The notes: generated by a model from the letters alone, not told the origin. Numbered from the stretch's first letter, positions 3,092 to 26,759 are shown. The stretch: DNA of 26,759 nucleotides from an uncultured Nitrospira sp. (GCA_964616355.1 CAZTUO010000001.1:23102-49860); one strand, 5' to 3'. Translations and numbers: made by a program.

Positions 3092-3105
3092 GGCCCAGCC
3101 ACCAG

Positions 3106-9635: not shown

Positions 9636-9650
9636 CGGGTCCTCTGTGCG

Positions 9651-10276: not shown

Positions 10277-10300
10277 GGGACCAGGTTGGCCCGAGGCCGA

Positions 10301-10588: not shown

Positions 10589-10618
10589 GTGGCGACCTCC
10601 CGTAGTCCGGGTCCCGGG

Positions 10619-11005
10619 TCAATGCGTCCCGAGCCAGCCGAGTGCGTTCAGCAAGAGCAGCGCCAGGGCGCACAGCGCCAGGCCGAAGAACCGGTAGTCG
10701 ATGTCATCCCGATGCAGGAGCCACTCGAGGATTCCATGGCGCCACCGCTCCGGCCCGACCGTGAACAGCAGGCCCTTCGCCACCATGAGCCCGCCAGACA
10801 GCACCCAGAGCGGCTGGTACCGGAGGCCCTCCGTCCCGACCAGGAGCAGCAGGCCGAGCAGGACGCCCACCCCTTCCCAGCGGAGCATGGCGGGGGAGAC
10901 GCCGAGGACTTCCCGCATCCGCGTCACGACGTGGCGCGGCGCGACCAATAGGGCTAGCCCGTCGGCCATCCAAATGCCGGCAATCGCTGCCAGGACGTAA
11001 TTCAT
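10619..11005 (-). CDS. Hypothetical membrane protein (about four TM helices)
   Basis: Several hydrophobic segments; same strand as and downstream of gdhA. Confidence 0.75.
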   Translation of the reverse strand: MNYVLAAIAGIWMADGLALLVAPRHVVTRMREVLGVSPAMLRWEGVGVLLGLLLLVGTEGLRYQPLWVLSGGLMVAKGLLFTVGPERWRHGILEWLLHRDDIDYRFFGLALCALALLLLNALGWLGTH

Positions 11006-11073
11006 GGCCGGAACCTCGGGCTGGCCGATGCCGCGGTCTCGCTTCTGCCGCGGTCGCCGAGGCCGTGCCCAGG

Positions 11074-12330
11074 CTATGGGTAGAGGCCGCGGGCCAGATG
11101 GGCCTGCGCCACCTTGTCAATGCCGCTCATGAGCGCGGCCATCCGCATGGAGACTCGGTGCGTCTGGGCAAACTGCAGGGTGCGCTGGAACGCGGCGGTG
11201 ATAATCTCGTAGAGCCGGTCCTGAATGTCCTTAGCGCTCCAGAAGAACCGCTGCGCATCCTGCACCCATTCGAAGTAGGAGACGATGACGCCGCCGGAGT
11301 TGGCCAGGATGTCGGGGATGATGAAGACGCCGTTCTCTTCCAGAATCTTATCGGCGTCGAGCGTCGTTGGCCCGTTGGCCCCTTCGGCCAGGATGCGGCA
11401 GCGGACGCGTGCCGCATTCTTCGCGGTGATCTGCTCGGACAGCGCCGCTGGCACCAGCACGGTGCAGTCCAGGGCTAGCAGCTCCTCGTTCGTGATAAAG
11501 TCTCCCGCTTTGCTCTCGCGGAGCGGCTGTCCTTCGTCCCGATAGCGCTGCAGCAACGCGGGCAGGTCCAAGCCCCTGGCATTGTACACCCCCCCGGAGA
11601 CGTCACTCACCGCGATCACCTTGGCGCCCGCCTCGGCCATGATCCGCGCGGTGTTGGCGCCGACGTTGCCGAAGCCCTGCACCGCCACGGTCGCCTTGTC
11701 GAGCGAGAGGCCCAGGTGCCGCATCGCCTCCAGGGTGACGTACACGACGCCGCGGCCCGTGGCATCCTCCCGCCCAAGGCTTCCGCCAATGGACAGGGGC
11801 TTCCCGGTCACGACACCGGGCACCGCGTAGCCGACCTGCTGGCTGTAGGTGTCCATGATCCAGGCCATGACCTGCGCGTTCGTCCCGACATCCGGTGCCG
11901 GTACGTCCTTGTCCGGGCCGAGCAGCGGGAAGATGTCGGCCGCGTACCGTCGGGTCAGGCGTTGCAGCTCGCCACGCGACAACTCTTTAGGCGAGACACG
12001 CACCCCGCCCTTCGCGCCCCCGTAGGGCAGGCCGGCCACCGCGCACTTCCAGGTCATCCACATGGCCAGGGCGGCCACTTCTCCCAGACTCACGGAGGGA
12101 TGGTACCGGATTCCTCCCTTCGACGGCCCGCGCGACGAATCGTGCTGCACGCGGTAGCCGGTGAACACCTTGACGCTCCCATCGTCCATTCTGATCGGCA
12201 CGCTGACGATCAACGAGCGCTCGGGTAGCTTCAGGCGCTCCCGCAGGTTGGGGTCGAGGTCCATCAATTCCGCGGCCTGATCGAACTGTGCGACCGCCAG
12301 GCGATAAGTGTCGGTATCCAATTCGGTCAC
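11074..12330 (-). CDS. gdhA: Glu/Leu/Phe/Val dehydrogenase, probably glutamate dehydrogenase
   Basis: [49 protein letters not shown] start at 12330 with GGGAGGGAG SD, overlapping the lipB stop. Confidence 0.93.
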
Positions 12331-13151
12331 GATGGTCTCCCTCCCGGTGGGAGAACGACTTCCCGACGCTTCTCTGCAGCTTGGGTGACCGGCTGGGCCT
12401 CTGTCCCGATCGCGTCCAGAAGGGTGACTTCGGTCCAGGTCAGCCCGAAGACTTCTGCAAACCGACTGGTCAGCCGAGCGCGAACAGCGGCCATGTCCAC
12501 GGAATGTCCGAGCAGAGCGGCCATGGAGGTGACCGACACACCCGGGATCCCGCAGGGGACGATGCGGGCGAATGGCTCCAGGTCCACGGTCACGTTGAGC
12601 GCGAACCCGTGCATCGTGATCCCGCGGACAATCCGGACCCCCACCGCCGCGATCTTCGCGGGCTGGGAGTCTCCGACCCACACCCCCGGCAGGCCTTCCC
12701 TGCGACAACCGATGATGCCCCACTCATCCAGCGTCCGGATCACGGTCTCTTCAAGCATCCGGACATAGGCCTTCGGTCCCGGACAATAGTCCTGCAATCG
12801 GAGGATCGGGTAACCCACGAGTTGACCTGGTCCATGGTAGGTGATGGACCCGCCCCGCTCCACCCACACTACAGGATGACCACCGATGTGCGAGGGGACT
12901 GCCTCACCGTGCCAGTGGGCGGGTTGCCCCCGCCGCCCAACCGTGTAAACCGGGTCGTGCTCGAGCAGGAGTAGCGTGTCCGAACAGTGGCCCGCCGCTC
13001 GGGTCTCGACAAGACGGTGTTGGAGTGCTCTGGCGGTCTCATACGCGATCTGGCTGTGTTCCATCAAGGCAGCGGGGTGACGGGCGCGCCCGGTGGGCGC
13101 CGGAATCGGTTCCGTCAAAGGCCGCGTGGTGGGTCCAAGCATGAGACTCAC
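12327..13151 (-). CDS. lipB: Lipoyl(octanoyl) transferase; start uncertain
   Basis: LEHDPVYTVGRR, RGGSITYHGPGQLVGYP, KIAAVG, HGFALNV, IVPCG. Confidence 0.95.
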   Translation of the reverse strand: MSLMLGPTTRPLTEPIPAPTGRARHPAALMEHSQIAYETARALQHRLVETRAAGHCSDTLLLLEHDPVYTVGRRGQPAHWHGEAVPSHIGGHPVVWVERGGSITYHGPGQLVGYPILRLQDYCPGPKAYVRMLEETVIRTLDEWGIIGCRREGLPGVWVGDSQPAKIAAVGVRIVRGITMHGFALNVTVDLEPFARIVPCGIPGVSVTSMAALLGHSVDMAAVRARLTSRFAEVFGLTWTEVTLLDAIGTEAQPVTQAAEKRREVVLPPGGRPS

Positions 13152-13195
13152 GACCGCATCGCCGACGCGGAGATGCGGTGCCGGTGCGTGTAAAA

Positions 13196-13224
13196 ACTAT
13201 ATCACAGGGTCCCTAGGCCAGCAA
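13196..13224 (-). promoter_or_regulatory. Putative sigma70 promoter for lipB-gdhA
   Basis: Minus strand TTGCTG (13224-13219), 17 nt, TATAGT (13201-13196) with extended -10 TGn. Confidence 0.6.
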
Positions 13225-13363
13225 CGAACCGATTTCCCTACGCCACTGGAATGGTTGATCGGGCCGAGCCCCGTGGCTTCTCCCCCAATGGCCGGGACTG
13301 GCCTGGGGGCTCCGCTCACCGGGCACTCAACCACGGAGACAGATCGCCGATAGAGCAAGTACG

Positions 13364-13591
13364 ATGTCCACTCGCGGGCAGACACTGACCTGTGACGAGC
13401 GGCTTGCCGCCGAGGCCGCGTTCAGAGGGGAACCCCTGGAGCCCGGCTGGTCCCAGTCCGCGCAGGCGATTTACTTCGGCATCCTCGCGGTGACCCAAGG
13501 CCGGGATATCACGCTCTTGGCGGACAGGCTGCCAGATGAGGCGGGGATCTGCTGTGGGGAGGAATTGGCCGGCGGCGGCCGTTCTCCATGA
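13364..13591 (+). CDS. Small hypothetical protein, 75 aa
   Basis: The only plausible ORF in the gap between lipB and htrA; LTCDERLAAEAAFRGEP looks like a folded helical segment. The SD is weak. Confidence 0.55.
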   Translation: MSTRGQTLTCDERLAAEAAFRGEPLEPGWSQSAQAIYFGILAVTQGRDITLLADRLPDEAGICCGEELAGGGRSP

Positions 13592-13607
13592 GCGGGGCTG
13601 GCGCCGG

Positions 13608-14666
13608 CTAGCGGGACACTTGCGGGGCCGGCACCCTCGGCAGCGTGATAGAAAGCTGCCCGGTTTTGCGGTAGACCGACAGCTTGGCGGGAGACTCGCT
13701 CGACTGGAGAAACAGATGCCAGAAGTCACCCAGGTTGTAGATCGGCGTATTGTCAATGGCGGTGATCACGTCGCCGTCCTGAAGGCCGGATTGCGCAGCC
13801 AGCTTGACGGACGCCACCTGAACGGCGAGCACGCCGCGATCCACATCCAGGTCGAAGCTGGCGGCGACACTGGGCGTCACCGTCAGGGGCACGAACCCGA
13901 GGTCCGGCCTCAGCACAGTGCCCCGCACCATCATGGAGGCGATGTTCGGATAGGTGGCGTCAATCGAGATGGCATAGCTGATCGCCTGGGCGGCAGGCGC
14001 AACGGCCGCGTTGATCCCCACCACGTGCCCTGAGAGGTCCACGAGCGGGCCCCCGCTGTTGCCGGGATTGATTGCCGCATCGGTCTGGATCAGATCGTAC
14101 AATGTCTCACCGTTCGGAGCCAGAATGGCGCGGTCCAGGGCGCTGACGACGCCGACGGTGACCGTGGACCCCCCCTTGAGAGCGAAGGGGTTGCCGATAG
14201 CCACCACCGTTTCGCCGATCTGAAGCTCCGAGGATCGCCCGAGGCGCGCCGGCACGAGATCCTTGGCCTCGATCTTGATCAGGGCCAGGTCGAGCAGAAA
14301 ATCCCGCCCGACCACGCGGCCGGGGGTCAACCGGCCGGAGGGAAGCCCGACCACCAGGCTCTTGATCCCTTCCACCAGGTGGTTGTTCGTTAAGATAAAC
14401 CCCTGTGCATCAATAATGATCCCCGATCCCGACCCGGGCGGCAACGGATGCTGGAAGGGGTTGGGAGGGACGCCGCGGGTCATGACCGTGACGACCGAAG
14501 GTCTCACCGCTGCGACCACCTCCGCCACAGTCATAGTCTTGCTCTTGACCGGCTGGGTCGGAGGTTCGGCTGTGGCGGTGCCGAAGACGGACAGCATCAG
14601 ACCGAGGCTGAAGAGTAGGCCCAGGCCCTGTCGCGCTCGCCCGCCGGTCTGGCGCGTCACGTGCAT
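13608..14666 (-). CDS. HtrA/DegP-family trypsin-like serine protease with one PDZ domain
   Basis: GSGSG, TNNHLV (His), DLALIK (Asp), QTDAAINPGNSGGP (Ser); signal/TM segment; C-terminal GLQDGDVITAID PDZ motif. Confidence 0.93.
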   Translation of the reverse strand: MHVTRQTGGRARQGLGLLFSLGLMLSVFGTATAEPPTQPVKSKTMTVAEVVAAVRPSVVTVMTRGVPPNPFQHPLPPGSGSGIIIDAQGFILTNNHLVEGIKSLVVGLPSGRLTPGRVVGRDFLLDLALIKIEAKDLVPARLGRSSELQIGETVVAIGNPFALKGGSTVTVGVVSALDRAILAPNGETLYDLIQTDAAINPGNSGGPLVDLSGHVVGINAAVAPAAQAISYAISIDATYPNIASMMVRGTVLRPDLGFVPLTVTPSVAASFDLDVDRGVLAVQVASVKLAAQSGLQDGDVITAIDNTPIYNLGDFWHLFLQSSESPAKLSVYRKTGQLSITLPRVPAPQVSR

Positions 14667-14768
14667 CGCGGCCCCCTCCCAGGTCCCCCAACAAGTTCGT
14701 TGTGACCGCTTGCTCTCCAGCGTGTCGTTCCGGCCCAGTTTAGCAAAAACTCCCAGGTTTCTGACCAG

Positions 14769-14803
14769 AAAACAAAACGGGCGAGGCGTTGGGGCCTCGC
14801 CCG
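14769..14803 (-). terminator. Intrinsic terminator of the sigma factor gene
   Basis: 10-bp stem CGGGCGAGGC/GCCTCGCCCG (14778-14803), followed on the minus strand by TTTTGTTTT. Confidence 0.8.
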
Positions 14804-14828
14804 CTGGTCGGCCATGTCCACTGGCCTC

Positions 14829-16082
14829 CTATTTGATCGACGCGAACATCTGCATGACTTCTGGGGATTTGAGCTTCTTGAGAGCTTTCGCCTCGATCTG
14901 CCGGATTCGCTCGCGAGTGACGCACAGGTTCTGCCCGACCTGCTCCAGCGTCCAGGGCTCGTCCTGTCCGATTCCAAACCGCAACCGAATTACCGTCTGC
15001 TCCCGTGGGGTGAGGGTGCTGAGGATGCGGTCCAGTTCGCGCGACATCTCCGTACGGTGGACGTGTGAGTCTGGAGGAAGCGCTTGGCGGTCCGCAAGCA
15101 ACTCTCCGAACAGGGTCTCCCCGTCACCCACGGGGTTCTCGAGTGAGATGGGCTCCTGGAACGCCTGCAGCGTTTCCTGGATCTTCCCCGGGCCCAGCTT
15201 GAGCGCCTTGCTTAACTCTTCGGGCCGCGGCTCCCGCCCGAGCTGCTGCACCAGCCGCCGAGACGTTCGGAGGATCCGGTTCGAGGCCTCGGTGAGGTGG
15301 ACGGGAATCCGGATCGTTCGGGATTGATCCGCCAGGGCACGAGTGATTCCCTGCCGAATCCACCACGTGGCATAGGTGCTGAACTTGAACCCCTTCCGGT
15401 ACTGGTAGCGCTCGGTAGCTTTCATAAGGCCGATATTGCCTTCCTGTACCAGGTCGAGCAGTGAGAGGCCGCGACCTGTGTAATGCTTGGCAATATCCAC
15501 TACCAGGCGGAGGTTATAGCGCACCAACTCATCCTTGGCGTGTTCGAAGGCGCCCCGGGCCGCGAGGATCTCACGGCGACACGCGGCCAGGCGCTTGGCC
15601 TTCGGAGTGCCCCCCTTGCCGGCCGCCCTTGCCTCAGCGATCAGCATGTCGAGCCCAGTGGTAATCCGATCCAGGGCCGTCGCCGAAAAGCCGCTCAAGC
15701 CTAGCGCCTGGCGAAGGTTCAGGAGGGTCTGGCTAAGCGTCTCCGTCTTCCGGAGCCGGGCCCCAATTCGGATCGCTTCGCGAACCTGACGGCGGATCGT
15801 CCGAGTGCCCCGGTCTATCTGTTTCGCCAGGGCGATCTCCTCTTCGCGGGTCAGGAGCGGCCGCTCTCCAAAGGACCGGAAGTAGACAGATTCCAGCGCC
15901 AACGAGGTATCCTCCGGTTCCTCGCCCTGCGGCCTGCGTGGCTTGGCGGGGTTGGCGGGCGATGCCGCCGGGCCTTGCTCAATAAGCTCAAGAATGTCGC
16001 TGGCTTCGGAGTCATCCGCTTCCAGCTCCAGCGCCACCGCCTGCCCCCGTTCGTGGCTGTCCAATAGCAAGTCTTTTTTCAT
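14829..16082 (-). CDS. Sigma-70 family sigma factor, RpoD-like paralogue
   Basis: Region 1.2 LLTREEE; region 2 NLRLVV..QEGNIGLMKA..KFSTYATWWIRQ..RTIRIPVH; region 3; region 4 TLEQVG..VTRERIRQIEAKALKKL. Confidence 0.95.
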   Translation of the reverse strand: MKKDLLLDSHERGQAVALELEADDSEASDILELIEQGPAASPANPAKPRRPQGEEPEDTSLALESVYFRSFGERPLLTREEEIALAKQIDRGTRTIRRQVREAIRIGARLRKTETLSQTLLNLRQALGLSGFSATALDRITTGLDMLIAEARAAGKGGTPKAKRLAACRREILAARGAFEHAKDELVRYNLRLVVDIAKHYTGRGLSLLDLVQEGNIGLMKATERYQYRKGFKFSTYATWWIRQGITRALADQSRTIRIPVHLTEASNRILRTSRRLVQQLGREPRPEELSKALKLGPGKIQETLQAFQEPISLENPVGDGETLFGELLADRQALPPDSHVHRTEMSRELDRILSTLTPREQTVIRLRFGIGQDEPWTLEQVGQNLCVTRERIRQIEAKALKKLKSPEVMQMFASIK

Positions 16083-16366: not shown

Positions 16367-17062
16367 TTACTCGAAAATGCTGAACCGGTCTAAATCCTCC
16401 TCCTTGCCAATGACCACGAGGACATCCCCCTTTTCCACGGTATCTTCCAGGGAGGGGGTAAAGTTGAACACTTCGTCCTTGACCATGCGTCCCTTCACCA
16501 TCCGGGTGACCTGCTTTTTAATCCCGATCACGTTCAGCCGGTACTGCTCACGGATACGCGCCTCCTGCAAGCGCAGCCCGGCTAGCTTGTCCGGAACCGT
16601 AATCTCCTCAATGCTGTAGCCCGGGGCGAGCTCCAGGTACTCCAGCACCTTGGGGGACACCAGCCGGTGGGCCAGCCGGATCGCCGCGTCCCGCTCGGGG
16701 TAGATGACCTCGTTGACACCGAGGTTCGTGAGGATCTTGCCGTGGGTATTGGTGACCGCCTTGGCGATGATAGACTTAATCCCCATCTCCTTCAGGGTCT
16801 GGACGATGAGGATGCTAGCCTCGATGTTCTCCCCGATGCTCACGACCGCCACATCCACGTTCTGGGTGCTGACGGCCTTGAGGGCCCGTTCATCAGTCGC
16901 ATCGCACTGCACGGCAAACGTCACTAAGTCGCTGATGGCCTGGATCTTGGTCTCATCGCGGTCAATGGCGAGGACCTCGCACCCCTTCTTGACGAGCGTT
17001 TCTGCGACGCTGTAGCCAAACCGGCCCAGGCCGATCACCGCAAATTGCCGCTTGGTCGCCAC
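16367..17062 (-). CDS. trkA: TrkA/KtrA family potassium-transport RCK subunit
   Basis: FAVIGLGRFG Rossmann motif, DATD, IIAKA, YPERDAA, C-terminal TrkA_C domain (GDVLVVIG). GTG start at 17062 is inferred. Confidence 0.9.
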   Translation of the reverse strand: MATKRQFAVIGLGRFGYSVAETLVKKGCEVLAIDRDETKIQAISDLVTFAVQCDATDERALKAVSTQNVDVAVVSIGENIEASILIVQTLKEMGIKSIIAKAVTNTHGKILTNLGVNEVIYPERDAAIRLAHRLVSPKVLEYLELAPGYSIEEITVPDKLAGLRLQEARIREQYRLNVIGIKKQVTRMVKGRMVKDEVFNFTPSLEDTVEKGDVLVVIGKEEDLDRFSIFE

Positions 17063-17093
17063 GTGTTCCCCCAGGTGCTGTGGTGGCAGGGCG

Positions 17094-17894
17094 TCATTCC
17101 GACCCGCGGCGAGCGGGGCCCTGCTCCTGGTTTGCAAAACTCTTCATGAGTGGCGTGAGGATGTCAATGGGGACCGGGAAGATCGTCGTCGAGTTCTTCT
17201 CCGCGGAGATCTCCACTAGCGTCTGCAGATACCGGAGCTGCAGGGCCATCGGGTGCTGGGCCATCACCTGGGCCGCTTCGGCCAGGCGCTGGGCGGCCTG
17301 GTATTCCCCCTCCGCGTGGATGATCTTCGAGCGCCGCTCCCGCTCGGCTTCCGCCTGCCGCGCGATCGCACGTTGCATCTCCTGGGGCAGGTCCACGTTC
17401 TTGACCTCGACCGCCGACACCTTCACGCCCCAGGGCTCGGTCTGTTCGTCAATGATCCGCTGGAGCTGCGTGTTGATCTCGTCGCGTTTGGCGAGCAGGT
17501 CGTCCAGGTTGCTCTGCCCCAGCACGCTGCGGAGCGTGGTCTGGGCCATCATCGAGGTTGCATACAGGTAGTCTTCGACCTCCACGATGGCCCGTTGCTG
17601 GTCCACGACCCGGAAGTAGATCACCGCGTTCACCTTCACGGAGACGTTGTCCTTGGTGATGACGTCTTGCGGCGGCACGTCCATGGCCACCGTCCGCAGG
17701 CTCACTCGCACGAGCTTGTCTATGAACGGGATGATCACGACGACGCCGGGCCCGTTGCCGCCAATGATGCCGCTGGCCAGGCGGCCGAATCGGAAGACGA
17801 CCGCGCGCTCGTACTCGCGCAGCACATGGAAGCCCATCGCGACGAGTAAGCCGGCGAGGACCACCAGAACCAGAGGGCTGAACAGCAGACTCAT
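17094..17894 (-). CDS. SPFH/stomatin (slipin) family protein
   Basis: [53 protein letters not shown]. Confidence 0.95.
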
Positions 17895-19234
17895 CAGGAG
17901 TCCCCCTTCTTGGCTAGGGGCTTGACGTAGAGCTTCAAGCCGTCAATCCGCGTGACTTCTGCGTACTCGCCGGCCTGCAGGGGCTGCTCGCTGATCGCGT
18001 CCCAGAGCTCCCCGTGCACCAGCAGCTTGCCCTGCGGGGCTAGCGCGGTCTTGGCTACTCCGACCAGACCGACCATGCCTTCGCTCCCAGTCCGAGGCCG
18101 GCGGCGCATCGCGCGCACCGCCATGCCGGCGACGAAGAGGCTGAAGGCGCCGGCGAGCGTCACGACCGGGAGGATGACCGACCAGGAGATCTTGAGGAAC
18201 GGCGCCTCGGCTTTGACCAGCATGAGCGAGCCCAGGATCATCGAGATCACCCCGCCGATCGCCAGCAGCCCGTAGCTGGTGACGCTCACTTCCAGAATGA
18301 ACAGGATGATCCCCAGCAGGATGAGTAGCACCCCCGCATAGTTGACCGGAAGCGACTGGAGCGAGTAGAAGGCCAGGATCAGGCTGATGGCCCCGACGAT
18401 GCCCGGCAAGATGGCGCCGGGGTTGTACAGCTCGGCCAGTAAGCCGATCATCCCGATGGTCATGAGCACATAGGCGATGTTGGGGTCGCTGAGCGCTTTG
18501 AGCATCTCCAGTCGCCAGCCCATCGCGAACTCGCGGATCTCCGCGCCTTTCGTGCGGAGCGCGACAGTCCCGGCCCCCACCGCGACGGTCCGCCCCTCCA
18601 GCCTGTCGAGCAACTGCGTCAGATCGTCCGCCACCAAGTCAATGATCTTCAACCGGAGCGCTTCCTTCTCCGTCACCGAGACGCTCTTCCGCACGGCCTC
18701 CTCGGCCCAGGCCACGTTCCGCTTGCGTTGCTCGGCGATGGACTTGATGTAGGCTACCGAGTCGTTCTCGATTTTCTCCTTCATCGTCTTGTCCATCTCG
18801 CCCCCGCCCATGGCCACCGGATGGGCGGCGCCGATGTTCGTTCCCGGCGCCATGGCGGCGACGTGGGCTGCGAGCGTGATGAAGACACCGGCCGAGGCGG
18901 CGCGGCCCCCCGACGGCGACACGTACACCACGACCGGAATGGGGGAGTTGGTGATGTCCTTGATGATCAGCCGCATCGAGCTGTCCAGCCCGCCGGGCGT
19001 GTCCAGCCGCAACACCAGCGCCTGGGCGCTCTGCTCTTCGGCGAAGGCCAGAGCATCGTGAAAGTATTCCGCCGTGACCGGGTTGATGACCCCTTCATAG
19101 GTGGCGAGCACCACCGTCTGGGCCGCTGCTGCAGGGGCAGCGGCGACGCCGAGCAGAAGGGCCACAGCGATGACGAGGCGGAGCCCGGGGAGAAGCCAGA
19201 CGCAGACGGCGGAGCCGCGCGCCACCAGAGTCAT
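17894..19234 (-). CDS. nfeD: NfeD long-form membrane-bound serine protease (ClpP class)
   Basis: LDTPGGL, GRAASAG (Ser), [14 protein letters not shown] (Lys), TM region, C-terminal GELW OB domain. The stop overlaps the SPFH start at 17894. Confidence 0.93.
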
Positions 19235-19271
19235 CGCGCAATCCTTGGTGGAAATGCTTGAGATATCTTGG

Positions 19272-19300
19272 ATAATACGGCCAGGGCGGCACCCTGTCAA
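19272..19300 (-). promoter_or_regulatory. Putative sigma70 promoter for nfeD-SPFH-trkA
   Basis: Minus strand TTGACA (19300-19295), 17 nt, TATTAT (19277-19272). Confidence 0.75.
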
Positions 19301-19324
19301 GGAATCGGAGCCGCGCCGGGTCGG

Positions 19325-19353
19325 TTGCAATGCCTTCCTGGTTCTCCTAGAAT
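19325..19353 (+). promoter_or_regulatory. Putative sigma70 promoter for trmI
   Basis: TTGCAA (19325-19330), 17 nt, TAGAAT (19348-19353), then 7 nt to the ATG at 19361. Confidence 0.7.
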
Positions 19354-19360
19354 GCCCGCG

Positions 19361-20287
19361 ATGACGCGGCTTCGGGACGGTGAACGCATCCATCTCGTGG
19401 ACAAGAAGGGGCGCCAGTACGCGCTCACGCTCAAGGCCGGCGAGGTGTACCAGTACAGCGGCGAGACGATCCCGCACGACGCGCTGATCGGCCGGCCGGA
19501 CGGCTCCCTGGTCACCCTGTCGCGCGGAAAGCGCATGCTCGCGCTGCGCCCGACGCTCGGTGACTATGTGCTCAAGATGCCGCGAGGCGCCCAGGTAATC
19601 TATCCCAAGGATCTCGCTCTGATCGCGATGTGGGCCGACATCTATCCAGGGGCTCGGGTCTTCGAAGCGGGCACCGGGTCGGGGGCGTTGACGATGGCCT
19701 TGCTGCGCGCGGTCGGCGAGCGGGGCACTGTCGTGACCTATGAGCCCCGTGAAGATTTCGCCCGGACGGCGCTCAAGAACATCGAGCGCTACCTCGGCCC
19801 GGCCCCCAACCTCACACTGCGTCGGCGGGATGCGGCGGCGGGCATCGAACCGGAGGCCGGGGACGGGGCCTTCGACCGGGTCGTGCTGGATCTGCCCGAG
19901 CCCTGGCGAGTGGTGCCCCATGCCGCGACGGCTCTGCGGTCCGGGGGCATCTACCTGAGCTATGTGCCGACGGTTCCCCAGGTGATGCAGACGGTCGAGG
20001 CACTCGAGCAGGCGTCGGTCTTCGGGCTCATCCAGACCTTCGAAACGTTGCTCCGGACCTGGAACATCCAAGGGCGGAGCGTCCGGCCCGACCATCGTAT
20101 GGTCGCGCACTCCGGGTTTATCACGGTCGCCCGCAAGGTGGAGCCGGGGCTCTGGTCGCGGCAGAGCGCGGCCGGCGAGGCCGTTCCCGCGGAACCAGTG
20201 CCGCTCCCGGACGCGTCGGCTTGGGATAGGGATGCTGATGAGGATGCTGGGAGCGACGAAGGGGACCAGGACCGTGAAGCGACTTGA
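19361..20287 (+). CDS. trmI: tRNA (adenine-58 N1)-methyltransferase
   Basis: QVIYPKDL, EAGTGSGALT, DLPEPW, RPDHRMVAHSGF; acidic C-terminal tail. Confidence 0.92.
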   Translation: MTRLRDGERIHLVDKKGRQYALTLKAGEVYQYSGETIPHDALIGRPDGSLVTLSRGKRMLALRPTLGDYVLKMPRGAQVIYPKDLALIAMWADIYPGARVFEAGTGSGALTMALLRAVGERGTVVTYEPREDFARTALKNIERYLGPAPNLTLRRRDAAAGIEPEAGDGAFDRVVLDLPEPWRVVPHAATALRSGGIYLSYVPTVPQVMQTVEALEQASVFGLIQTFETLLRTWNIQGRSVRPDHRMVAHSGFITVARKVEPGLWSRQSAAGEAVPAEPVPLPDASAWDRDADEDAGSDEGDQDREAT

Positions 20288-21029
20288 CGCAAAAGTCGCC
20301 TTGATCACGGGTGGAGGCGTCGGCATCGGTGCGGCCGTCGCGCGGCTGTTCGCCCGCGAGGGCGCCGCCGTCGTCGTCACCGGCCGGCGGAAAGACGTGA
20401 TCGAGCGGGTCGCCGAAGACATTCAGCGCACCGGGGGGCGGGCCCTCGCAGCGGCGGGAAGCGTCGCGGACGAGAGCCATGTCCGGTCCGCCGTCGCGCA
20501 GGCGGTCCGGGCCTTTGGCAAGCTGGACGTCCTGGTGAACAATGCTGGGATCGGAGCCTTCGGGATGACTCTCCACGACACCTCCGACGCGACCTGGGAG
20601 GCTCTCCTCGCCACCAACCTCACCGGGGTGTTTCGCATGACCCGCGCGGTGATTCCGGAGATGCTCAATGCGGGTGGCGGCTCAATCATCAACGTGTCGT
20701 CGATCGCAGGGCTCGTCGGCATCCCGTTGAGCGCCGCCTACAGCGCGACCAAGGGTGCCCTCAACGCGCTGACCAAGTGCGTCGCCGTGGAGTACGCCAA
20801 GCAGGGCATCCGCTGCAACGCCGTCTGTCCCGGGCTCGTGGACACGCCGATGGCGGCCCCGCTCATGAGCGATCCGGAGCGGCTTGCCCAGGTGCTCGCC
20901 GTCTATCCGCAGGGGCGGGCAGGCAAACCAGAGGAAGTGGCGCAGCTCATCCTCTATCTGGCGTCCGACGAGTCGGCATGGGTCACTGGCGGTCTGTTCC
21001 CGATTGACGGCGGGATGACCGCGCAATGA
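20274..21029 (+). CDS. Classical short-chain dehydrogenase/reductase
   Basis: TGGGVGIG, NNAG, SS, YSATK, NAVCPG, IDGG. GTG at 20274 overlaps the end of trmI. Confidence 0.93.
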   Translation: MKRLDAKVALITGGGVGIGAAVARLFAREGAAVVVTGRRKDVIERVAEDIQRTGGRALAAAGSVADESHVRSAVAQAVRAFGKLDVLVNNAGIGAFGMTLHDTSDATWEALLATNLTGVFRMTRAVIPEMLNAGGGSIINVSSIAGLVGIPLSAAYSATKGALNALTKCVAVEYAKQGIRCNAVCPGLVDTPMAAPLMSDPERLAQVLAVYPQGRAGKPEEVAQLILYLASDESAWVTGGLFPIDGGMTAQ

Positions 21030-21054
21030 AAAATGACCTGATGAGGAGCAAGCC

Positions 21055-21390
21055 ATGACACCCGAACAGTGGAAGCCACGGTGTTGGGATCTGCTGATGG
21101 TGACCTTGTGCTGCCTGGGGCTGGCCCTCATTGGTCTGCAGGCGGCGTTGGCCGGCGGCCCCGTCGAGTTCACCGGCAGCGTCCTCAAGGTGGACCCCGC
21201 CTACAACAAGTTGACCGTAGTCAAGCAAGGTGGCGGCGCGCGCTTCACCTTCATCGTGGACGACAAGACCCAGTTCGAGGGGACGACCTTCAAGGCCCTC
21301 AAGAAGGGCGATGCCGTGACCGTGCTCTACGTGGTCAACGGCAGCCAGTACTTGGCGAAGAAGGTCAGCGCCAGGGGCAAGGAGAAATAG
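21055..21390 (+). CDS. Small exported hypothetical protein, beta-rich
   Basis: Signal peptide ending ALA-GG; mature part FTGSVLKVD..FIVDDKT..LKKGDAVTV looks OB-fold-like; AGGAG SD. Confidence 0.75.
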   Translation: MTPEQWKPRCWDLLMVTLCCLGLALIGLQAALAGGPVEFTGSVLKVDPAYNKLTVVKQGGGARFTFIVDDKTQFEGTTFKALKKGDAVTVLYVVNGSQYLAKKVSARGKEK

Positions 21391-21422
21391 GGAGGGCAGC
21401 CAGCGCGGCGCCCGCGGACCCC

Positions 21423-22277
21423 GTGGAGATCAACACCCACACCCAGCTCTGCGGCTTGCTCGGCAACCCGGTCGAGCATTCGCTCTCCCCGGCCATCCAC
21501 AATGCGGCCTTTCAGAAGCTGGGGCTGAACTTCGTCTATCTCGCCTTCCGGGTGGAGGATCTCGCCGGGGCGATACGCGGCATCCGGGCGCTGGGGAACC
21601 TGCGGGGCTTCAGCGTCACCATTCCGCATAAGGTTGCGGTCCTCTCCTATCTCGACGAGGTCGAGCCGACCGCCAGACACATCGGATCGGTCAACACCAT
21701 CGTCGTCGAGGACGGGAAGCTCATCGGATACAACACGGACGCGTCCGGGGCGCTCCGAGCCCTGAGGGAGGCGGGGGTAGGGCTCAAGGGGCAGCACGTC
21801 CTGATGCTGGGGTCCGGCGGGGCAGCCCGTGCCATCGCCTTTGCGCTGGCCCTCGAGGGGGGCGTCGCGGGCCTCACGATCCTGGGCATTGACGAGCGGG
21901 AGCGGCACGGCCTGGTCGCCGACCTCCGCGCGCGCACGTCGCTCCCCGTGGAAGAAGGGCCGATCTCTGACGACCGCCTGCGCCGGGCCATCGCGGCACA
22001 CCAGGTCCTGCTCCACTGCACGCCGGTCGGCATGTACCCGAAGGTCGAGGAAACCTGCGTGCCGGCCGCCTTGCTGCGCCCCCACCTCGCGGTCATGGAC
22101 ATCGTATACAACCCCCTCGAGACGCGCCTGTTGCGGGAGGCCCGCGCGGCCGGCTGCAAGACGGTACCCGGGATCGAGATGTTTTTGAACCAGGCCGTCG
22201 GACAGTTCGAGCTCTGGACGGGTCGGCCCGCCCCGGCGGACGTCATGCGGGCCGTCCTCAACGCCCGGTTCGCATGA
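21423..22277 (+). CDS. aroE: Shikimate dehydrogenase
   Basis: GNPVEHSLSP, VTIPHK, NT, NTD, GSGGAA, TPVGM, DIVYNP. GTG start at 21423 is inferred. Confidence 0.95.
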   Translation: MEINTHTQLCGLLGNPVEHSLSPAIHNAAFQKLGLNFVYLAFRVEDLAGAIRGIRALGNLRGFSVTIPHKVAVLSYLDEVEPTARHIGSVNTIVVEDGKLIGYNTDASGALRALREAGVGLKGQHVLMLGSGGAARAIAFALALEGGVAGLTILGIDERERHGLVADLRARTSLPVEEGPISDDRLRRAIAAHQVLLHCTPVGMYPKVEETCVPAALLRPHLAVMDIVYNPLETRLLREARAAGCKTVPGIEMFLNQAVGQFELWTGRPAPADVMRAVLNARFA

Positions 22278-22774
22278 ACATCGTCCTGATCGGCTACCGG
22301 GGAACCGGGAAGAGCAGCGTGGGGAAACTCTTGGCCGAGCGGCTTGGCCGGGAGCTCGTGTCCACCGATGAGGAGATCGTCCGGCGCACCACCCTGCCGA
22401 TCCCCGAGATCGTTAAACGGTTCGGCTGGGACTATTTCCGCGACCTGGAATCGCAGGTCTGCCGAGATCTGGCGGCCAAGGACGGCCTCATCATAGACAC
22501 GGGCGGCGGCGCCATCCTGCGGCAGGAGAACGTGGAGCGGCTGAAGGCGAACGGGCGGCTCTTCTGGCTGACGGCCGAGGTGAGCACGATCGCCCAGCGG
22601 ATCGCGGGGGATACCCAGCGGCCGTCGCTGACCGGGGCGAAAAGCTTTATCGAGGAGATCGAGGACGTGCTGCGGGAACGGCTGCCTAGGTACCGGGCGG
22701 CCGCGGACGACGTCATCCCGACGGACGGCCGGCCGCTGTCTGCGGTTGCGGAGGACATCCTCGCCAAGCTCTAG
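22274..22774 (+). CDS. aroK: Shikimate kinase
   Basis: P-loop GYRGTGKS, DTGGG, QRP; ATGA overlap with aroE. Confidence 0.95.
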   Translation: MNIVLIGYRGTGKSSVGKLLAERLGRELVSTDEEIVRRTTLPIPEIVKRFGWDYFRDLESQVCRDLAAKDGLIIDTGGGAILRQENVERLKANGRLFWLTAEVSTIAQRIAGDTQRPSLTGAKSFIEEIEDVLRERLPRYRAAADDVIPTDGRPLSAVAEDILAKL

Positions 22775-22787
22775 ACGGGCCCTCGTA

Positions 22788-22816
22788 TTGCAATGCCTGG
22801 GGGGCCATGCTATGCT
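22788..22816 (+). promoter_or_regulatory. Putative sigma70 promoter for the RRM gene
   Basis: TTGCAA (22788-22793), 17 nt, TATGCT (22811-22816) with extended -10 TGn. Confidence 0.7.
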
Positions 22817-23019
22817 GGTGAGCGCAATTCATCGCTGCGGGGCCGAGTGATGGAGAGCCGAGTGGAGAGGCCCTGATCGATGTTGCCTTGCGAGAGGAAG
22901 CTGGCCGGACAGTGTGAGTGACCTGATGGTGCTGCGTCGCGACGCGCCTTCGCGTCCCACCTCCGTCTCCCCACCCCTCTCCTCCAAGACAATGTCAAGA
23001 GCCGTGTAGGAGGTTAGCC

Positions 23020-23325
23020 GTGGGTACCAAATTGTATGTGGGCAGCCTGCCCTATTCCACCACCGAGCAGCAACTCAACGAGCTGTTCTCCCAGTATGGA
23101 ACGGTCCAGTCCGCGAAGGTGATCACCGACCGGTACACCGGACAGTCGCGGGGGTTCGGATTCGTCGAGATGGCGACGGGCGAGGAAGCCCAAAAGGCCA
23201 TCGCGGCCCTGAACGGGTCCACGCTGGGCGGCCGCACGCTGGTGGTCAACGAGGCTCGACCGCAGGAGAAGCGACCCTACGGCGGGGGTAGCGGAGGTGG
23301 CGGAGAGGGGAGAGATCGCTGGTAA
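23020..23325 (+). CDS. Single-RRM RNA-binding protein with a Gly-rich tail
   Basis: RNP2 LYVGSL, RNP1 RGFGFVEM, VNEARP; TAGGAGG SD. Confidence 0.96.
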   Translation: MGTKLYVGSLPYSTTEQQLNELFSQYGTVQSAKVITDRYTGQSRGFGFVEMATGEEAQKAIAALNGSTLGGRTLVVNEARPQEKRPYGGGSGGGGEGRDRW

Positions 23326-23362
23326 GTCCCACCGCGGACCAGAGTTTCCGCAGGCAATGTCG

Positions 23363-23397
23363 AGGGGGCCGAAGCTGAGCAGCGGCCCCTTTTGTTT
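23363..23397 (+). terminator. Intrinsic terminator after the RRM gene
   Basis: Stem GGGGCCG (23365-23371)/CGGCCCC (23383-23389) followed by TTTTGTTT. Confidence 0.8.
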
Positions 23398-23481
23398 GAA
23401 GGCTGACTGAGGCCCCCCTTCCTGGGCCGACACGATCTGGCTTGAGAAGCGTTCCAGCCTGGCGGCTGTCATCAGTCGTGT

Positions 23482-23558
23482 GCGCCCGTAGCTCAGTTGG
23501 ATAGAGCGTCGGGCTTCGAACCCGCAGGTCGCCCGTTCGAGTCGGGCCGGGCGCACCA
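23482..23558 (+). tRNA. tRNA-Arg(UCG), 77 nt, CCA encoded
   Basis: Acceptor GCGCCCG/CGGGCGC, D stem GCTC/GAGC with A20, anticodon TCG at 23516-23518, T arm GCCCG-TTCGAGT-CGGGC. There is one U:C mismatch at pair 27:43. Confidence 0.97.
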
Positions 23559-24740
23559 TAATGTTTCAAGCACTTCCGCATCGCCGCCGCGCCGCGCCGC
23601 GCCGGCCGGTTGCAGGGAGGTTGCAGATTCGGCCTCGGCCAAGGGGTCATCGAGTCGGTCGACGGCCTGGCGGTTCCCCCCGGGGATGAGATGCCCGTAG
23701 AGGTCGACCGTGACCTGGATCGAGGAGTGTCCCATCTGCTCCTTGACGTAGACCGGGCTTTCCCCTTGCTGCAGCAGCAGGCTCGCGAAGGTATGGCGGA
23801 GGTCATGGATGCGGATCTGGCGCAAGCCTGCCGCACGCAGGGCGGGATAGAACACGCGATGGCGGAGGTTGTCCGGGTCGAGGAGCCCGCCGGTTTCGCT
23901 ACAAAACACCCAGGGCGACATGGCCGCTCCGGTCGCCGCGGCCTCCAGTTCCCGCTCGGTGTAGAGGTCTTTCAACGTGCGCGTGAGGGCTTGCGAGAGG
24001 TCGACCCGCCGCACCTCGCCGCTCTTGGGCGTGGTGAGGTGCCCGTGGCTCCAGGACCGCTGCACCAAGAGGTAGCGGCTGCGCAGGTCGAGGTCCCCCC
24101 ATTGGAGGGCGAGCAGCTCGCCCAAGCGCAAGCCCGTCCGCACCGCGCAGAGAAACAGCGGGTAATACCGCGGGGCGTGCCGCTGAATGGTCCGCAAGAA
24201 CGCGGACACTTCCTCGCGCGTCAAGGGGTTCACCTTCCGCCGCTTCGAAATCCCCGGGAGGAAGCGTCCCGGCTTGAGGGCCACGTTGGTCGATACCAGG
24301 CCGTCCTCAAGCGCTTGGCTGAGCACGCTCGACAGCACGCGCACCGTATTCGCCACGGTCTTCGGAGCGAGGCCTCGGGTCAGTTGCTCCGTGACGAACG
24401 CCCGGACCTTGTCCCGCGTGATCGATCGCAAGGGGAGCGCGCCCAGGGCCGGGAGAATCCACTGCCCCAGGCGCTTGGCGTAATCCCGCGCCGTGTTGGG
24501 CTTGCGGACCTGGCGGATATGCTCCAGCCAGGCCGTCGCGTACTCCGCCAGCGTCGGGCTGGCCGGCTCGGCCGGAAAGGCGCCCTGCCCCAGGGCCAGC
24601 CGCGCGGCGATCTGTTGCGCCGCGCGGTGCGCGGCCTGCTTCCCCGCCGCGCCCACCCCGATCCGCTTGGCCTTCCGCTGGCCGCGGTGGGCGACGAACA
24701 CCCACCACGCCCCCTTCCATTCGCGCACCCGGACGCCCAT
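23493..24740 (-). CDS. Tyrosine integrase with N-terminal arm-binding and SAM-like domains
   Basis: Full catalytic set: TGLRLGE (R), TPKSG (K), HDLRH (H, R), MGH (H), DLYGH (Y). ATG at 24740 (MGVRVREWKGAWWV) is inferred. Confidence 0.95.
   Translation of the reverse strand: MGVRVREWKGAWWVFVAHRGQRKAKRIGVGAAGKQAAHRAAQQIAARLALGQGAFPAEPASPTLAEYATAWLEHIRQVRKPNTARDYAKRLGQWILPALGALPLRSITRDKVRAFVTEQLTRGLAPKTVANTVRVLSSVLSQALEDGLVSTNVALKPGRFLPGISKRRKVNPLTREEVSAFLRTIQRHAPRYYPLFLCAVRTGLRLGELLALQWGDLDLRSRYLLVQRSWSHGHLTTPKSGEVRRVDLSQALTRTLKDLYTERELEAAATGAAMSPWVFCSETGGLLDPDNLRHRVFYPALRAAGLRQIRIHDLRHTFASLLLQQGESPVYVKEQMGHSSIQVTVDLYGHLIPGGNRQAVDRLDDPLAEAESATSLQPAGAARRGGDAEVLETLWCARPDSNGRPAGSKPDALSN
23608..23626. 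repeat. Direct repeat GGTTGCAG x2, candidate integrase arm-type sites
   Basis: GGTTGCAG at 23608-23615 and 23619-23626 (11-bp period), about 50 bp from the tRNA end. Confidence 0.5.
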
Positions 24741-24753
24741 GCCTTTTTTGAGG

Positions 24754-25011
24754 TTACCGCTCGCCGGATCCCGGCCGGACTGCCGCGACGATCTCGTCGA
24801 CCACCCGGCTGAGGTCCTCGCGTCGAGGGTCGACACGATACTGTTCCATCCAGTGCTCAAAGGCTTCGCGCTTCACCAGTACCTTCTTCCCGATCCGGTA
24901 GTGCGGCAACGGATGCTGCGGGTCATGCAGCCGGTCTCGCAGCCACCGAATCGAGCACGAAGCATAGGCCGCGAGGGATTTGAGATCAAGGTATTCCTTG
25001 GAGGAGGACAT
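24754..25011 (-). CDS. Excisionase/recombination-directionality-factor-like winged HTH protein, 85 aa
   Basis: YLDLKSLAAYASCSIRWLRD..LPHYRIGKKVLVKREAFEHW fits the Xis/HTH_17 pattern; it ends 13 nt before the integrase start. Confidence 0.85.
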   Translation of the reverse strand: MSSSKEYLDLKSLAAYASCSIRWLRDRLHDPQHPLPHYRIGKKVLVKREAFEHWMEQYRVDPRREDLSRVVDEIVAAVRPGSGER

Positions 25012-25340
25012 CACGCGATGATGTGGACCAGCCACACCCCCTTGCGCGTCTCGATCCGCTCGACCTGATGCACGCCATGCTCCTGACAGACCGCCTCCCA
25101 GACCGCCCTCGCCGGCATCGTGGCGGGATACATCGTGGCGTACACCACGCGATGGAGGCCGCGGGCATCCAGCGACTCCCGCACCACCGCCGGGTCCCCC
25201 GCCGCCGTCCCGCGCGCCCGCGCTTTCCAGCGCGCGACGGCCTCCCGCAGGCCTGCGATCGTGCGCTCGCGCTTGGCCACCTCCCACTCCAGCGTCGCGG
25301 CGCGGCGCTGGTGCTCTTGGCACTCCGGGCACCCCATCAC
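25011..25340 (-). CDS. Hypothetical protein, 109 aa, N-terminal CxxC and coiled coil
   Basis: Start overlaps the upstream stop (GTGA) and its stop overlaps the xis start (TGATG); CPEC followed by a heptad-like helix. Confidence 0.7.
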   Translation of the reverse strand: MMGCPECQEHQRRAATLEWEVAKRERTIAGLREAVARWKARARGTAAGDPAVVRESLDARGLHRVVYATMYPATMPARAVWEAVCQEHGVHQVERIETRKGVWLVHIIA

Positions 25341-26269
25341 CGCACCCTCCCGAGGTACGCGGCGGTCACGCTCTCGCGCGAGTGCCCCAGGTCCTCCGCG
25401 ATCGTCATCCGGGCCACCGCGAGGCGGTCGCGACTGATCTGGTCCGTCTCCCCACCCCGCACCGGCGCGGGCGTGCCCGTCAGCTGCTCAAATCGCTCGG
25501 ATGCGTATTCGTGCCGCAGGCCGTGGCTCGTGATCCCGCGCGCCCGCGTGATCCCCTCCCGTTCGAGGACGTGGTAGTATTCGCGCCGGACCTGGGCGTA
25601 GGTCATCCCGTAGCGCGCCCCCTGGCCGAGGCTTTCGGCCCCGCTGGTGAGCGCCTTCGCCCGGTCCAGCGCGGCGCGTTGCTCAGGCGTCTCGATGCGC
25701 ACCACCCGATCCCGCCCCCCTTTCGTCCCGCGGTTCACATCTACGTATGATCCACGATCCGCGAGGTGCGGGCGGATCATGAGCGATTCCCGGACGCGCA
25801 AGCCGAATTCACGTTGCAGGCTCAGCGCCGCCGCGATGCGCGGATGCCGCTCCGCCAGCTGCGCGATCCGCTCCCGCGCGTCGATCCCCCGCGCCGACCA
25901 GCTCTTGTCCACACGCGCGGCGTACGTGCGCCGGGTCTCGGTCCGGTAGTCCCGTGCGATCTGGTCGACGAGGCCGGGCTTGCCGATCCACCCCGCGAAG
26001 GTGCGGAGCACACTCAGCCGATTCTGATATTCTGATCTACTCAGGTTCCGTTCGCGCCAGGCCTCGCAGAGCGCGCGGACATGCCGGCCGCCGAGGCTCC
26101 GCACGCTCGGCAGCTTGTACCCGAGCTCGCGAAGCTGCTTGAAGGCGGCGTACAGCACGTCGCTCCGCTTTTCCAGTGTCGCGGTACTCAAGACCCGCGC
26201 GCGATCATGCGAGATGCGGCCGTGGACGCGCAGCAGCGCCGCCAGCTCGCGTTTCCAGTCCGCTCCCAT
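25337..26269 (-). CDS. Second tyrosine-recombinase-family protein (Phage_int_SAM_2 + Integrase_1-like)
   Basis: FGLRVRES (R), GTKGGRDR (K), HGLRH (H, R), LGH (H), AAYLG (Y); N-terminal YQNRLSVLR SAM-like helix. ATG at 26269 is preferred over GTG at 26317. The Pfam assignment is from recall. Confidence 0.88.
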   Translation of the reverse strand: MGADWKRELAALLRVHGRISHDRARVLSTATLEKRSDVLYAAFKQLRELGYKLPSVRSLGGRHVRALCEAWRERNLSRSEYQNRLSVLRTFAGWIGKPGLVDQIARDYRTETRRTYAARVDKSWSARGIDARERIAQLAERHPRIAAALSLQREFGLRVRESLMIRPHLADRGSYVDVNRGTKGGRDRVVRIETPEQRAALDRAKALTSGAESLGQGARYGMTYAQVRREYYHVLEREGITRARGITSHGLRHEYASERFEQLTGTPAPVRGGETDQISRDRLAVARMTIAEDLGHSRESVTAAYLGRVR

Positions 26270-26759
26270 GATTTCGCCCTGACCGATCCCTCGCGCCGGC
26301 TCGCGATCGCCGCGCACAGGACAATTGCGCGCGATGGGGGTACGTGAATAGCTACGACCCCACTCGAGAGCGGTCCCCGCTCTACGAGTGCCCTCCTGCC
26401 CGGAGGGTGCTGGGTCTCCTTACTCCCGCGCCTGGCGTCACCGCGTCCGTGACGCTGCGCGCTGGGTGCAGCCTCTGCGCGATCGAGCCGTTACCCGTCT
26501 CGCACTCGCACAGGGCGACGTGTGCTCAGCTCGGCTTCTGAGCCTTCCCGCTCGCTTGATCGCGCGTCGCACTCACGATCAGCGTTTTCCCCCGATGCCG
26601 CCGCGTCCGGCCTGCCATCGCGGATTGCCACCCGGGCCGTTCGGGGGCGGGGAGTCCAGCGTCCGTCGCCGTGCTCGACGCACTGCCTGTCACGGATTGG
26701 CCTCACGCCCTGACGCTGCGACTCGCTCGCTCGCACACAGACGCGCTCGCGCGCGTTTC

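Follow-up and report, generated by a model that had tools for sequence, protein, structure and literature searches.

A stretch of 26,759 nucleotides from an uncultured Nitrospira sp. (GCA_964616355.1, CAZTUO010000001.1:23102-49860; hereafter the window, to which all positions given without a locus number refer) ends within what is likely, from its sequence, to be an integrative mobilizable element of ~7 kb, of which it holds the integrase-proximal half, inserted in the 3' end of a tRNA-Arg(TCG) gene. Besides a tyrosine integrase, Int, this element encodes a second protein of the tyrosine-recombinase fold, YR2, which almost certainly belongs to the family (PF12835/PF12834, MOB_M-type) of the protein MpsA of Salmonella genomic island 1 (SGI1); judged by that homology, YR2 probably functions as a relaxase and not as a second integrase. 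The distal half of the element was inferred from the relatives L001, L003 and L005 (the loci compared carry L numbers throughout), and YR2 is preceded by a long non-coding leader in which part of a hammerhead ribozyme can be recognised.

YR2 and the MpsA family

25337..26269, minus strand: YR2, a 310-aa MpsA-family protein of the tyrosine-recombinase fold, putative relaxase; ATG start; PF12834 and PF12835

YR2 passes the Pfam cut-offs for PF12835 (Integrase_1; 35.2 bits, cut-off 23) and PF12834 (30.6 bits, cut-off 22) and falls under that for the general family PF00589 (22.3 bits, cut-off 27.1); the MpsA of SGI1, taken from locus L004, likewise matches PF12835 and fails PF00589. BLASTP gives 33% identity between YR2 and MpsA over the catalytic domain (E 1e-17), both proteins have a GTKGGR motif and a long insert before the LGH..Y, and in hhalign the profile of the YR2 family matches MpsA with 99.6% probability (E 1.2e-23) over 262 columns that include the N-terminal domain, whereas the same profile matches the element's own Int with 85% probability (E 6e-6). 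The catalytic set of YR2 is R158, K183, H249, R252, H296 and Y305; all but H249 are invariant in 34 family members, MpsA among them, and H249 is present in at least 90%. An AlphaFold model of YR2 (pLDDT 90.5) consists of a core-binding and a catalytic domain and has no arm-binding domain, its nearest structures being lambda Int 75-356, XerA, IntI and Cre (TM about 0.6).

A first-pass annotation of this DNA had suggested that YR2 may be an atypical relaxase of the kind of MpsA, TcpM or MobK, and the Pfam, BLASTP and profile homology to MpsA now favours that suggestion; the placement against PF12834/PF12835 and MpsA that it had put forward as a check sets YR2 in the MpsA family. The absence of an arm-binding domain that it had read from the sequence is borne out by the two-domain model, and likewise real are the GTKGGRDR motif and the ~40 residues inserted after HGLRH and before LGH, both being family traits common to MpsA. 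Its remark that no example had been described in this kind of host holds for the phylum, which is new, and not for the kind of element, as PF12835 has been in use as the signature of MpsA-type relaxase-like islands ('INT_DTR_like') since 2023 (PMC10484663), and a preprint of 2026 reports that MOB_M (called by CONJscan from a profile score of 84 upwards) is the chromosomal relaxase met with most often in six species, with 96% near an integrase (bioRxiv 10.64898/2026.01.13.699239).

The MpsA and MpsB sequences of SGI1 were taken from an ORF (open reading frame) of 321 aa in L004, with HGERHH and a C-terminal SYLG, and from the 99-aa ORF that follows it, both of which agree with the published residues and sizes. 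L004 (GenBank OR851053.1) was deposited as 'UNVERIFIED_ORG: Salmonella phage S.Kent 1-2-1' and presumably includes the origin-of-transfer (oriT) region; it is most likely a fragment of SGI1 and not phage DNA.

More than 680 homologues of YR2 were found, nearly all with PF12835 together with PF12834, and the 72 loci drawn from reference genomes are almost all from Pseudomonadota. The family gene adjoins an integrase in L013, L058, L052, L054 and L056, L013 being a small island beside citrate synthase with the true integrase a few kb off; L022 carries a type I restriction-modification system as cargo, and in Burkholderia-type replicons the family gene lies amid ParM, primase-Zn/DUF7146, Lar and DUF1173 modules of a backbone of plasmid or ICE (integrative and conjugative element) type. 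Public annotation labels such proteins as integrases only.

The operon and the integrase end

25011..25340, minus strand: ORF109, a 109-aa protein coupled translationally to YR2 and Xis; its GTG overlaps the YR2 stop as GTGA
24754..25011, minus strand: Xis-like 85-aa helix-turn-helix protein; TGATG overlap with ORF109
23493..24740, minus strand: Int, a 415-aa tyrosine integrase, its 3' end antisense to the tRNA and att (attachment) core; PF00589 (89.3 bits), PF14659 and PF22022
23482..23558, plus strand: tRNA-Arg (anticodon TCG), into which the element is integrated; the att core is its 3' half; ARAGORN, Rfam tRNA 67.5 bits
23512..23557, no strand: att core repeat, tRNA-proximal copy; same sequence as the perfect 46-bp direct repeat at the ends of the element of Nitrospira sp. 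Kam-Ns4a

All genes of the operon are on the minus strand, and the order that had been proposed for it (leader, YR2, the 109-aa ORF, the Xis-like ORF, Int, tRNA) agrees with the ORF coordinates, as do the GTGA and TGATG overlaps and the gap of 13 nt between the Xis-like ORF and Int; the residues R-K-H-R-H-Y, said to be kept in both recombinases, could be located in each. Those of Int, read from the sequence, are R205 (TGLRLGE), K239 (TPKSGEV), H312 and R315 (HDLRHT), H338 (MGHSS) and Y348 (DLYGH), and among PHROGs Int matches phrog_1, integrase (7e-74). The Xis-like protein is just under the cut-offs for PF12728 HTH_17 (26.0 bits, cut-off 27) and the TIGR01764 excisionase (25.3 bits, cut-off 28.8) and matches the excisionase phrog_1840 (6e-7); it is probably a recombination directionality factor. 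A scan of 23400-26759 for sigma-70 promoters and intrinsic terminators, a scan that is uninformative for this host, returned none.

The final ~21 codons of Int are antisense to tRNA-Arg(TCG). It was observed that the Int frame runs antisense across the 3' half of the tRNA and the att core (23493-23558), as it also does in L001 (tRNA-Arg) and L003 (tRNA-Lys), so that the C-terminal tail of Int would be dictated by whichever tRNA is targeted. In L005, where the YR2 homologue is 61% identical, a serine resolvase gene lies between the small ORF and Xis (6639-7316).

ORF109, which also has an in-frame ATG at 25337, has no Pfam, NCBIfam or significant PHROG match, and a search of 5.8 billion proteins gave 5 homologues and one of 1.8 billion representatives gave 6, of which those that convince are all members of this clade. 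Its model (pLDDT 85) has a helix at 4-42 followed by a beta-beta-alpha-beta-beta domain, and against the PDB it found no structural neighbour, with nothing better than E 0.087. Of the 7 distinct clade loci 6 keep the gene behind YR2, the exception being L128/L129, and because this position is conserved and translationally coupled it suggests an accessory role. In position ORF109 is to YR2 what mpsB is to mpsA in SGI1; a relation to MpsB was considered and rejected, as there is no similarity between the two and the predicted fold differs from that of MpsB, a 98-aa four-helix protein. Homologues of MpsB follow the family gene in six distant loci only (L067, L069, L074, L076, L078 and L079).

Element ends, gene content and host

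The complete genome of Nitrospira sp. Kam-Ns4a (L001) matches the chromosomal flank (16868-22784) at 91% identity and has a related element at the same tRNA that is 78% identical (16868-26257 compared with L001); this difference in identity between flank and element suggests that the elements at this one hot spot were acquired independently or that one replaced another. The distal att copy of the element studied here falls past the window end. The element of L001 measures 7,492 bp and is flanked by perfect 46-bp copies of the 3' half of the tRNA (5169-5214 and 12661-12706); that of L003, in tRNA-Lys, measures 6,893 bp between perfect 47-bp repeats.

The gene order in the complete relatives is a toxin-antitoxin pair, a divergent protein of ~200 aa, a primase zinc finger, a helicase-like protein and two small ORFs, followed by the non-coding leader and then YR2, a small ORF, Xis and Int. 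The primase-type protein (139 aa) has a DnaG-type CHC2 zinc finger (phrog_6088 primase, 1.7e-13) in L001 and L005 and was not detected in L003; the ~455-aa helicase-like protein matches the helicase part of phage primase-helicases and is homologous (2e-141) to a DUF3987 protein of L005. No type IV secretion system (T4SS), coupling protein, canonical relaxase, capsid or terminase gene was found in L001 or L003. The first-pass annotation had proposed recovering the rest of the element in order to look for T4SS, coupling-protein, rep or capsid genes; in the relatives helicase and primase genes of replication type were present. A 92-aa ORF upstream of the leader was considered as a ribbon-helix-helix relaxosome protein and dropped, as searches gave no support.

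The leader and its hammerhead ribozyme

26270..26759, minus strand: non-coding leader preceding YR2, which may be an oriT, a processed RNA or both; continues past the window end
26734..26759, minus strand: 3' part of a type I hammerhead; GAAAC 26759-26755, stem III ACGCGC/GCGCGU, GUC 26742-26740, stem I 3' strand UGUGUG 26739-26734
26694..26709, minus strand: conserved GGCGTGAGGCCAATCC box; RNAalifold pairs its CGTGAG with TTCACG 26348-26343
26356..26416, minus strand: three-way junction; stem GACCC (26416-26412)/GGGTC (26360-26356), hairpin 1 26407-26391, hairpin 2 26390-26361
26343..26355, minus strand: end motif GTAGCTATTCACG, a match to GTAnCTATTCAC(G), directly 3' of the three-way junction
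L007 284-352, L001 9521-9590, L003 9546-9605, L005 4817-4887, L009 2068-2133: complete hammerhead copies
L001 9336-9371, L003 9349-9393, L007 97-132, L009 1884-1919: GGCACTCTCTGTC...GACAGAGAGTGCC repeat, conserved in sequence

The 490 nt of leader in the window contain no Pfam family and no ORF conserved in the relatives, in which the full leader is about 670-830 nt long; aligned with five relatives the mean identity is 60%, with indels that are not multiples of three. As single-stranded DNA the leader folds better than 100 of 100 shuffles (z = -4.3).

At its upstream end the window contains the 3' part of a hammerhead ribozyme, with cleavage predicted after C26740 and the 5' part (stem I, CUGAnGA, stem II) past the window end. 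The five distinct clade loci with a long leader all have a complete hammerhead, on the strand of YR2, and in each of the five sequences the core CUGAnGA...GAAA...UH is found with G10.1-C11.1 and A15.1-U16.1, around three stems, all of which vary in a compensatory manner: stem I (ACACA/UGUGU, CCACC/GGUGG, AGGACC/GGUCCU), stem II (GCCCC/GGGGC, GCCAC/GUGGC) and stem III (variants ACUCGC, ACGCGC, ACCGC and ACGC). The call was based on our own descriptor and on covariation, not on Rfam, and the strict descriptor had no match in 1.82 Mb of other sequence and none in 10,000 shuffles. Rfam scans of the window and the five loci gave no ribozyme at E <= 0.1, a scan of 743 nt at E <= 10 gave spurious microRNA-type hairpins only, and a scan of 96 nt gave RAGATH-1-hammerhead at 15.6 bits, against a gathering score of 56.3, with the same core assignment; the miss is likely due to the stem II loop, which at 13-26 nt is unusually long. 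The ribozyme precedes the YR2 start by ~470 nt in the window and by about 390-530 nt in the relatives, and its position on the YR2 strand suggests that the leader strand is transcribed and, if the ribozyme is active, processed.

Hammerheads near integrase genes are a known but unexplained class in bacteria (Perreault et al. 2011, PMC3088659). The present ones share with those hundreds of examples a consensus core within the polycistronic unit of an integrative element, and differ from them in lying in the leader of a MOB_M relaxase operon, in the length of the stem II loop and in falling short of the Rfam gathering score.

Nearer to YR2 the leader contains a three-way junction of 22 pairs, in which 89% of cells in the alignment are paired compared with 37-48% when the partners are slid, and 13 pairs are changed on both sides; none of 500 shuffles reaches the observed values. 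Directly following it the end motif GTAnCTATTCACG (26355-26343) is carried by 8 loci of the clade and by none of the 74 others compared, with a one-base variant CTAGCTATTCAC in L005 and a one-mismatch variant GTACCTACTCACG in L129. The pairing of the GGCGTGAGGCCAATCC box with the end of this motif has no covariation support.

Past the window end, just after the last upstream ORF, the relatives have a long inverted repeat, GGCACTCTCTGTC-N22-GACAGAGAGTGCC, with a spacer of 22-31 nt, followed by a G-rich tract, GGCGGGCGGCGGGGGGCGGGGG; the repeat is a candidate protein-binding site or oriT element. A metagenome scan with the 18-nt motif GGGKYGTASCTATTCACG returned 44 loci, one of them real (L098, a twin of L003) and 43 chance matches.

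In L128 (886-3384) and L129 a YR2 homologue of 71% identity lies in an element of lower GC content, with a DnaB/AAA_25 helicase after it and not ORF109-Xis-Int, an arrangement which suggests that a relaxase-plus-leader module moves between different element backbones. The leader of these two loci has no ribozyme and keeps the repeat, as GCACTCTCT...AGAGAGTGC, together with the variant of the end motif, so that repeat and end motif appear to track the YR2 protein more faithfully than the ribozyme does.

The usual layout of an oriT is a hairpin followed by a conserved single-stranded motif, and the hairpins and conserved single-stranded motif of the leader fit such a layout. The leader is a conserved structured region, part of which is the ribozyme, and in sequence it resembles no known oriT. 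The first-pass annotation had taken the region upstream of YR2 for a hairpin array that YR2 nicks or recombines; the structure is real, as both the folding score and the covariation attest, whilst part of it belongs to a ribozyme and the leader exceeds the window. Because it includes the 3' part of the hammerhead and structure on the transcribed strand it should not be taken simply for the DNA substrate of YR2, a role in which we place low confidence.

The strongest alternative, a real possibility though short of being probable, is that the leader is mainly an RNA device, be it a 5' leader processed by the hammerhead or a small RNA, with a controlling or assisting role in the expression of YR2, xis and int, and that any oriT lies elsewhere, for example at the long inverted repeat and G-rich tract past the window end. 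The same-strand hammerhead of the long-leader loci speaks for this, as does the three-way junction, where the sense strand has wobble pairs (G-U or U-G) in 6 cells as against A-C in 1. L128/L129 point the same way in having no ribozyme and yet the repeat and a variant of the motif, and SGI1 itself requires a processed RNA encoded between oriT and mpsA (PMC9299015). On the other hand covariation does not separate RNA from folded single-stranded DNA, the layout of hairpin and motif is that of an oriT too, and the two roles are not exclusive.

A more specific proposal, by analogy with SGI1, is that the hammerhead matures a structured RNA of ~400-500 nt between an oriT-like repeat and the relaxase gene, which would be the functional counterpart of the sgm-sRNA of SGI1, itself encoded at the corresponding place and in the corresponding orientation with respect to mpsA, and would end in the covarying three-way junction; we regard this as a long shot, with the chances well against it. 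If true, an RNA cofactor would be general to MpsA-type relaxosomes, here with a self-cleaving maturation, and the bacterial hammerhead would gain a defined job in conjugative DNA processing.

Proposed mechanism and alternatives for YR2

The reading that we prefer, in which YR2 is a relaxase, is favoured, besides the homology to MpsA, by the small size of the complete relatives and their lack of any other transfer gene, by the rarity of the family in viruses, by the islands and conjugative backbones in which relatives are found, by the published work on MpsA, MobK and PF12835, and by the structure and motifs that the clade conserves in the leader. For this reading we infer the following cycle. 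Integration and excision at the 46-bp att core derived from the tRNA would be the work of Int and the Xis-like protein; after excision YR2 would bind a site in the non-coding region upstream of its own gene and nick one strand through Tyr305, giving a covalent protein-DNA intermediate that the T4SS of a co-resident conjugative element would export, a helper being proposed because the element has no such system of its own. As YR2, ORF109, Xis and Int are translationally coupled, the functions for excision and transfer would be made together. The helicase, the primase-type zinc-finger protein, the small ORFs and the toxin-antitoxin pair would maintain the excised or integrated form, and the hammerhead, if active, would cut a long transcript so as to leave a 5'-OH structured leader before the YR2-ORF109-xis-int message.

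Several points weigh against a relaxase. The nick site could not be mapped even for MpsA (PMC6414798), and the relaxase function of YR2 and its close relatives is assigned by homology only. The recombinase active site of YR2 is complete and the N-terminus forms a core-binding-like domain (PF12834) of its own, for which reason YR2 may still have true recombination activity, and the replication-type genes of the element mean that a role in replication or resolution would also make sense. No MpsB homologue is present in the element, and the structures of the leader, lying on the transcribed strand downstream of a ribozyme, may be RNA elements and not an oriT. The literature on Nitrospira conjugative elements gave nothing useful, and no helper conjugative system is known for the host; to our knowledge there is almost no described conjugative biology in the Nitrospirota, the nitrifier phylum.

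That YR2 is instead a conventional site-specific recombinase, which resolves multimers of the circle or inverts a segment through sites in the leader, we consider unlikely. It would accord with the full R-K-H-R-H-Y and core-binding domain and with best folds that are all those of recombinases, and as the helicase and primase-like genes may allow the excised circle to replicate, resolution may be needed; the leader moreover has long conserved inverted repeats, and the nick site of MpsA has never been mapped. However, the YR2 profile matches MpsA some 18 orders of magnitude better than it does a real integrase, YR2 fails the PF00589 threshold, the spacer of the repeat (22-31 nt) is unlike the core sites of 6-8 bp, and L005 has a separate serine resolvase near its YR2 homologue. 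SGI1 presumably carries a separate serine resolvase likewise.

It is very unlikely that YR2 is a replication initiator nicking the excised circle for rolling-circle replication: a tyrosine-based nicking mechanism and the replication-type accessory genes would allow it, whereas Pfam, NCBIfam and PHROG searches found no homology to any Rep family and the helicase and primase-zinc-finger module suggests another route of initiation. We know of no member of the PF12835/MpsA family that acts as a replication initiator.

Least probable of all is that the element is a phage satellite (P4-like or similar to a phage-inducible chromosomal island, PICI) that hijacks capsids, with YR2 serving in that cycle, for although Int, HTH_17 and the helicase/primase-zinc-finger set resemble satellite cores, the complete relatives have no capsid, terminase or packaging genes, and it was rejected as a main explanation because viral collections hardly contain the YR2 family (one locus in 2.9 million IMG/VR contigs; 50,697 phage records gave two weak matches, the SGI1 fragment being one).

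Comparison with known systems

SGI1 cannot transfer without MpsA and MpsB, and its oriT is situated upstream of mpsA (PMC6414798); a transcript of 650-700 nt, from between oriT and mpsA, is processed into an RNA needed for transfer (PMC9299015). The Nitrospira element is like SGI1 in that YR2 and MpsA share PF12835, the GTKGGR motif, the insert and the catalytic residues, with a small ORF directly after and a long GC-rich non-coding region with inverted repeats upstream on the same strand, and in having Int, Xis and a toxin-antitoxin pair and being non-self-transmissible. It differs in that YR2 and MpsA are only 27-33% identical, the PF12834 N-terminal domain is scored by YR2 and not by MpsA, and ORF109 is unrelated to MpsB. 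Furthermore it is ~7 kb in place of ~43 kb and has no traN/G/H or sgaDC, is inserted in a tRNA gene and not in trmE, has its relaxase gene fused into the xis-int operon and a hammerhead in the leader, and resides in a host of the Nitrospirota.

The likeness to iMOB/MOB_M elements lies in a relaxase-like recombinase beside a true integrase on a small chromosomal island without a mating-pore system: the complete relatives have Int and att repeats, and L001 and L003 no T4SS or coupling protein of their own. The surveys of such integrative mobilizable elements (iMOB) covered six species of Pseudomonadota, where they are 23 kb on average; the present one is extreme in its smallness and comes from a different phylum.

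MobK (pIGRK) and TcpM (pCW3), likened here by description, are tyrosine-recombinase-fold relaxases with an oriT in the intergenic region before the gene; they differ in being plasmid-borne and shorter, and are reported to be without a core-binding domain. Nicking by MobK of its upstream oriT depends on Tyr and Mg, that oriT requires an inverted repeat and a G-rich tract, and the prototypes of tyrosine-recombinase-fold relaxases have been reported to have no significant mutual sequence similarity (PMC8152469). The leader of the Nitrospira clade also has an inverted repeat and a G-rich tract, the tract being past the window end. With P4-like and PICI-type satellites the element shares Int, an AlpA/HTH_17 Xis, a module of primase-helicase type and the form of a small tRNA-inserted island, and it differs from them in having no capsid-redirecting or packaging genes and in having a relaxase homologue, of a family hardly seen in viral collections.

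The arrangement itself is of a known kind; the new points are the phylum, how small the element is, and an orphan protein in the place of MpsB. The element extends MpsA-type (MOB_M) relaxases, and the island layout of an integrase with a relaxase-like recombinase, to the Nitrospirota. At ~7 kb with clean att ends it is among the smallest candidate relaxase-bearing islands, and would thus be a convenient minimal system for a tyrosine-recombinase fold acting as a relaxase. The leader with its ribozyme is the sole feature that could lift the element above routine, as it offers a testable link between the role of integrase-near hammerheads and the processed-RNA requirement of SGI1.

Neighbouring features in the relatives

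L005 has a second island at 9309-14843, at a tRNA cluster, with an integrase that has an arm-binding domain, an AlpA and a DnaB-domain protein, and the two islands of this locus may be a tandem island array. In L001 there is an extra gene of 472 aa between the tRNA and the shikimate kinase gene, and at 1996-3957, just outside the distal att repeat, lie a group II intron, recognised by Rfam D1-D4 and domain V and by an ORF for a reverse transcriptase/maturase, and a DUF763 gene.

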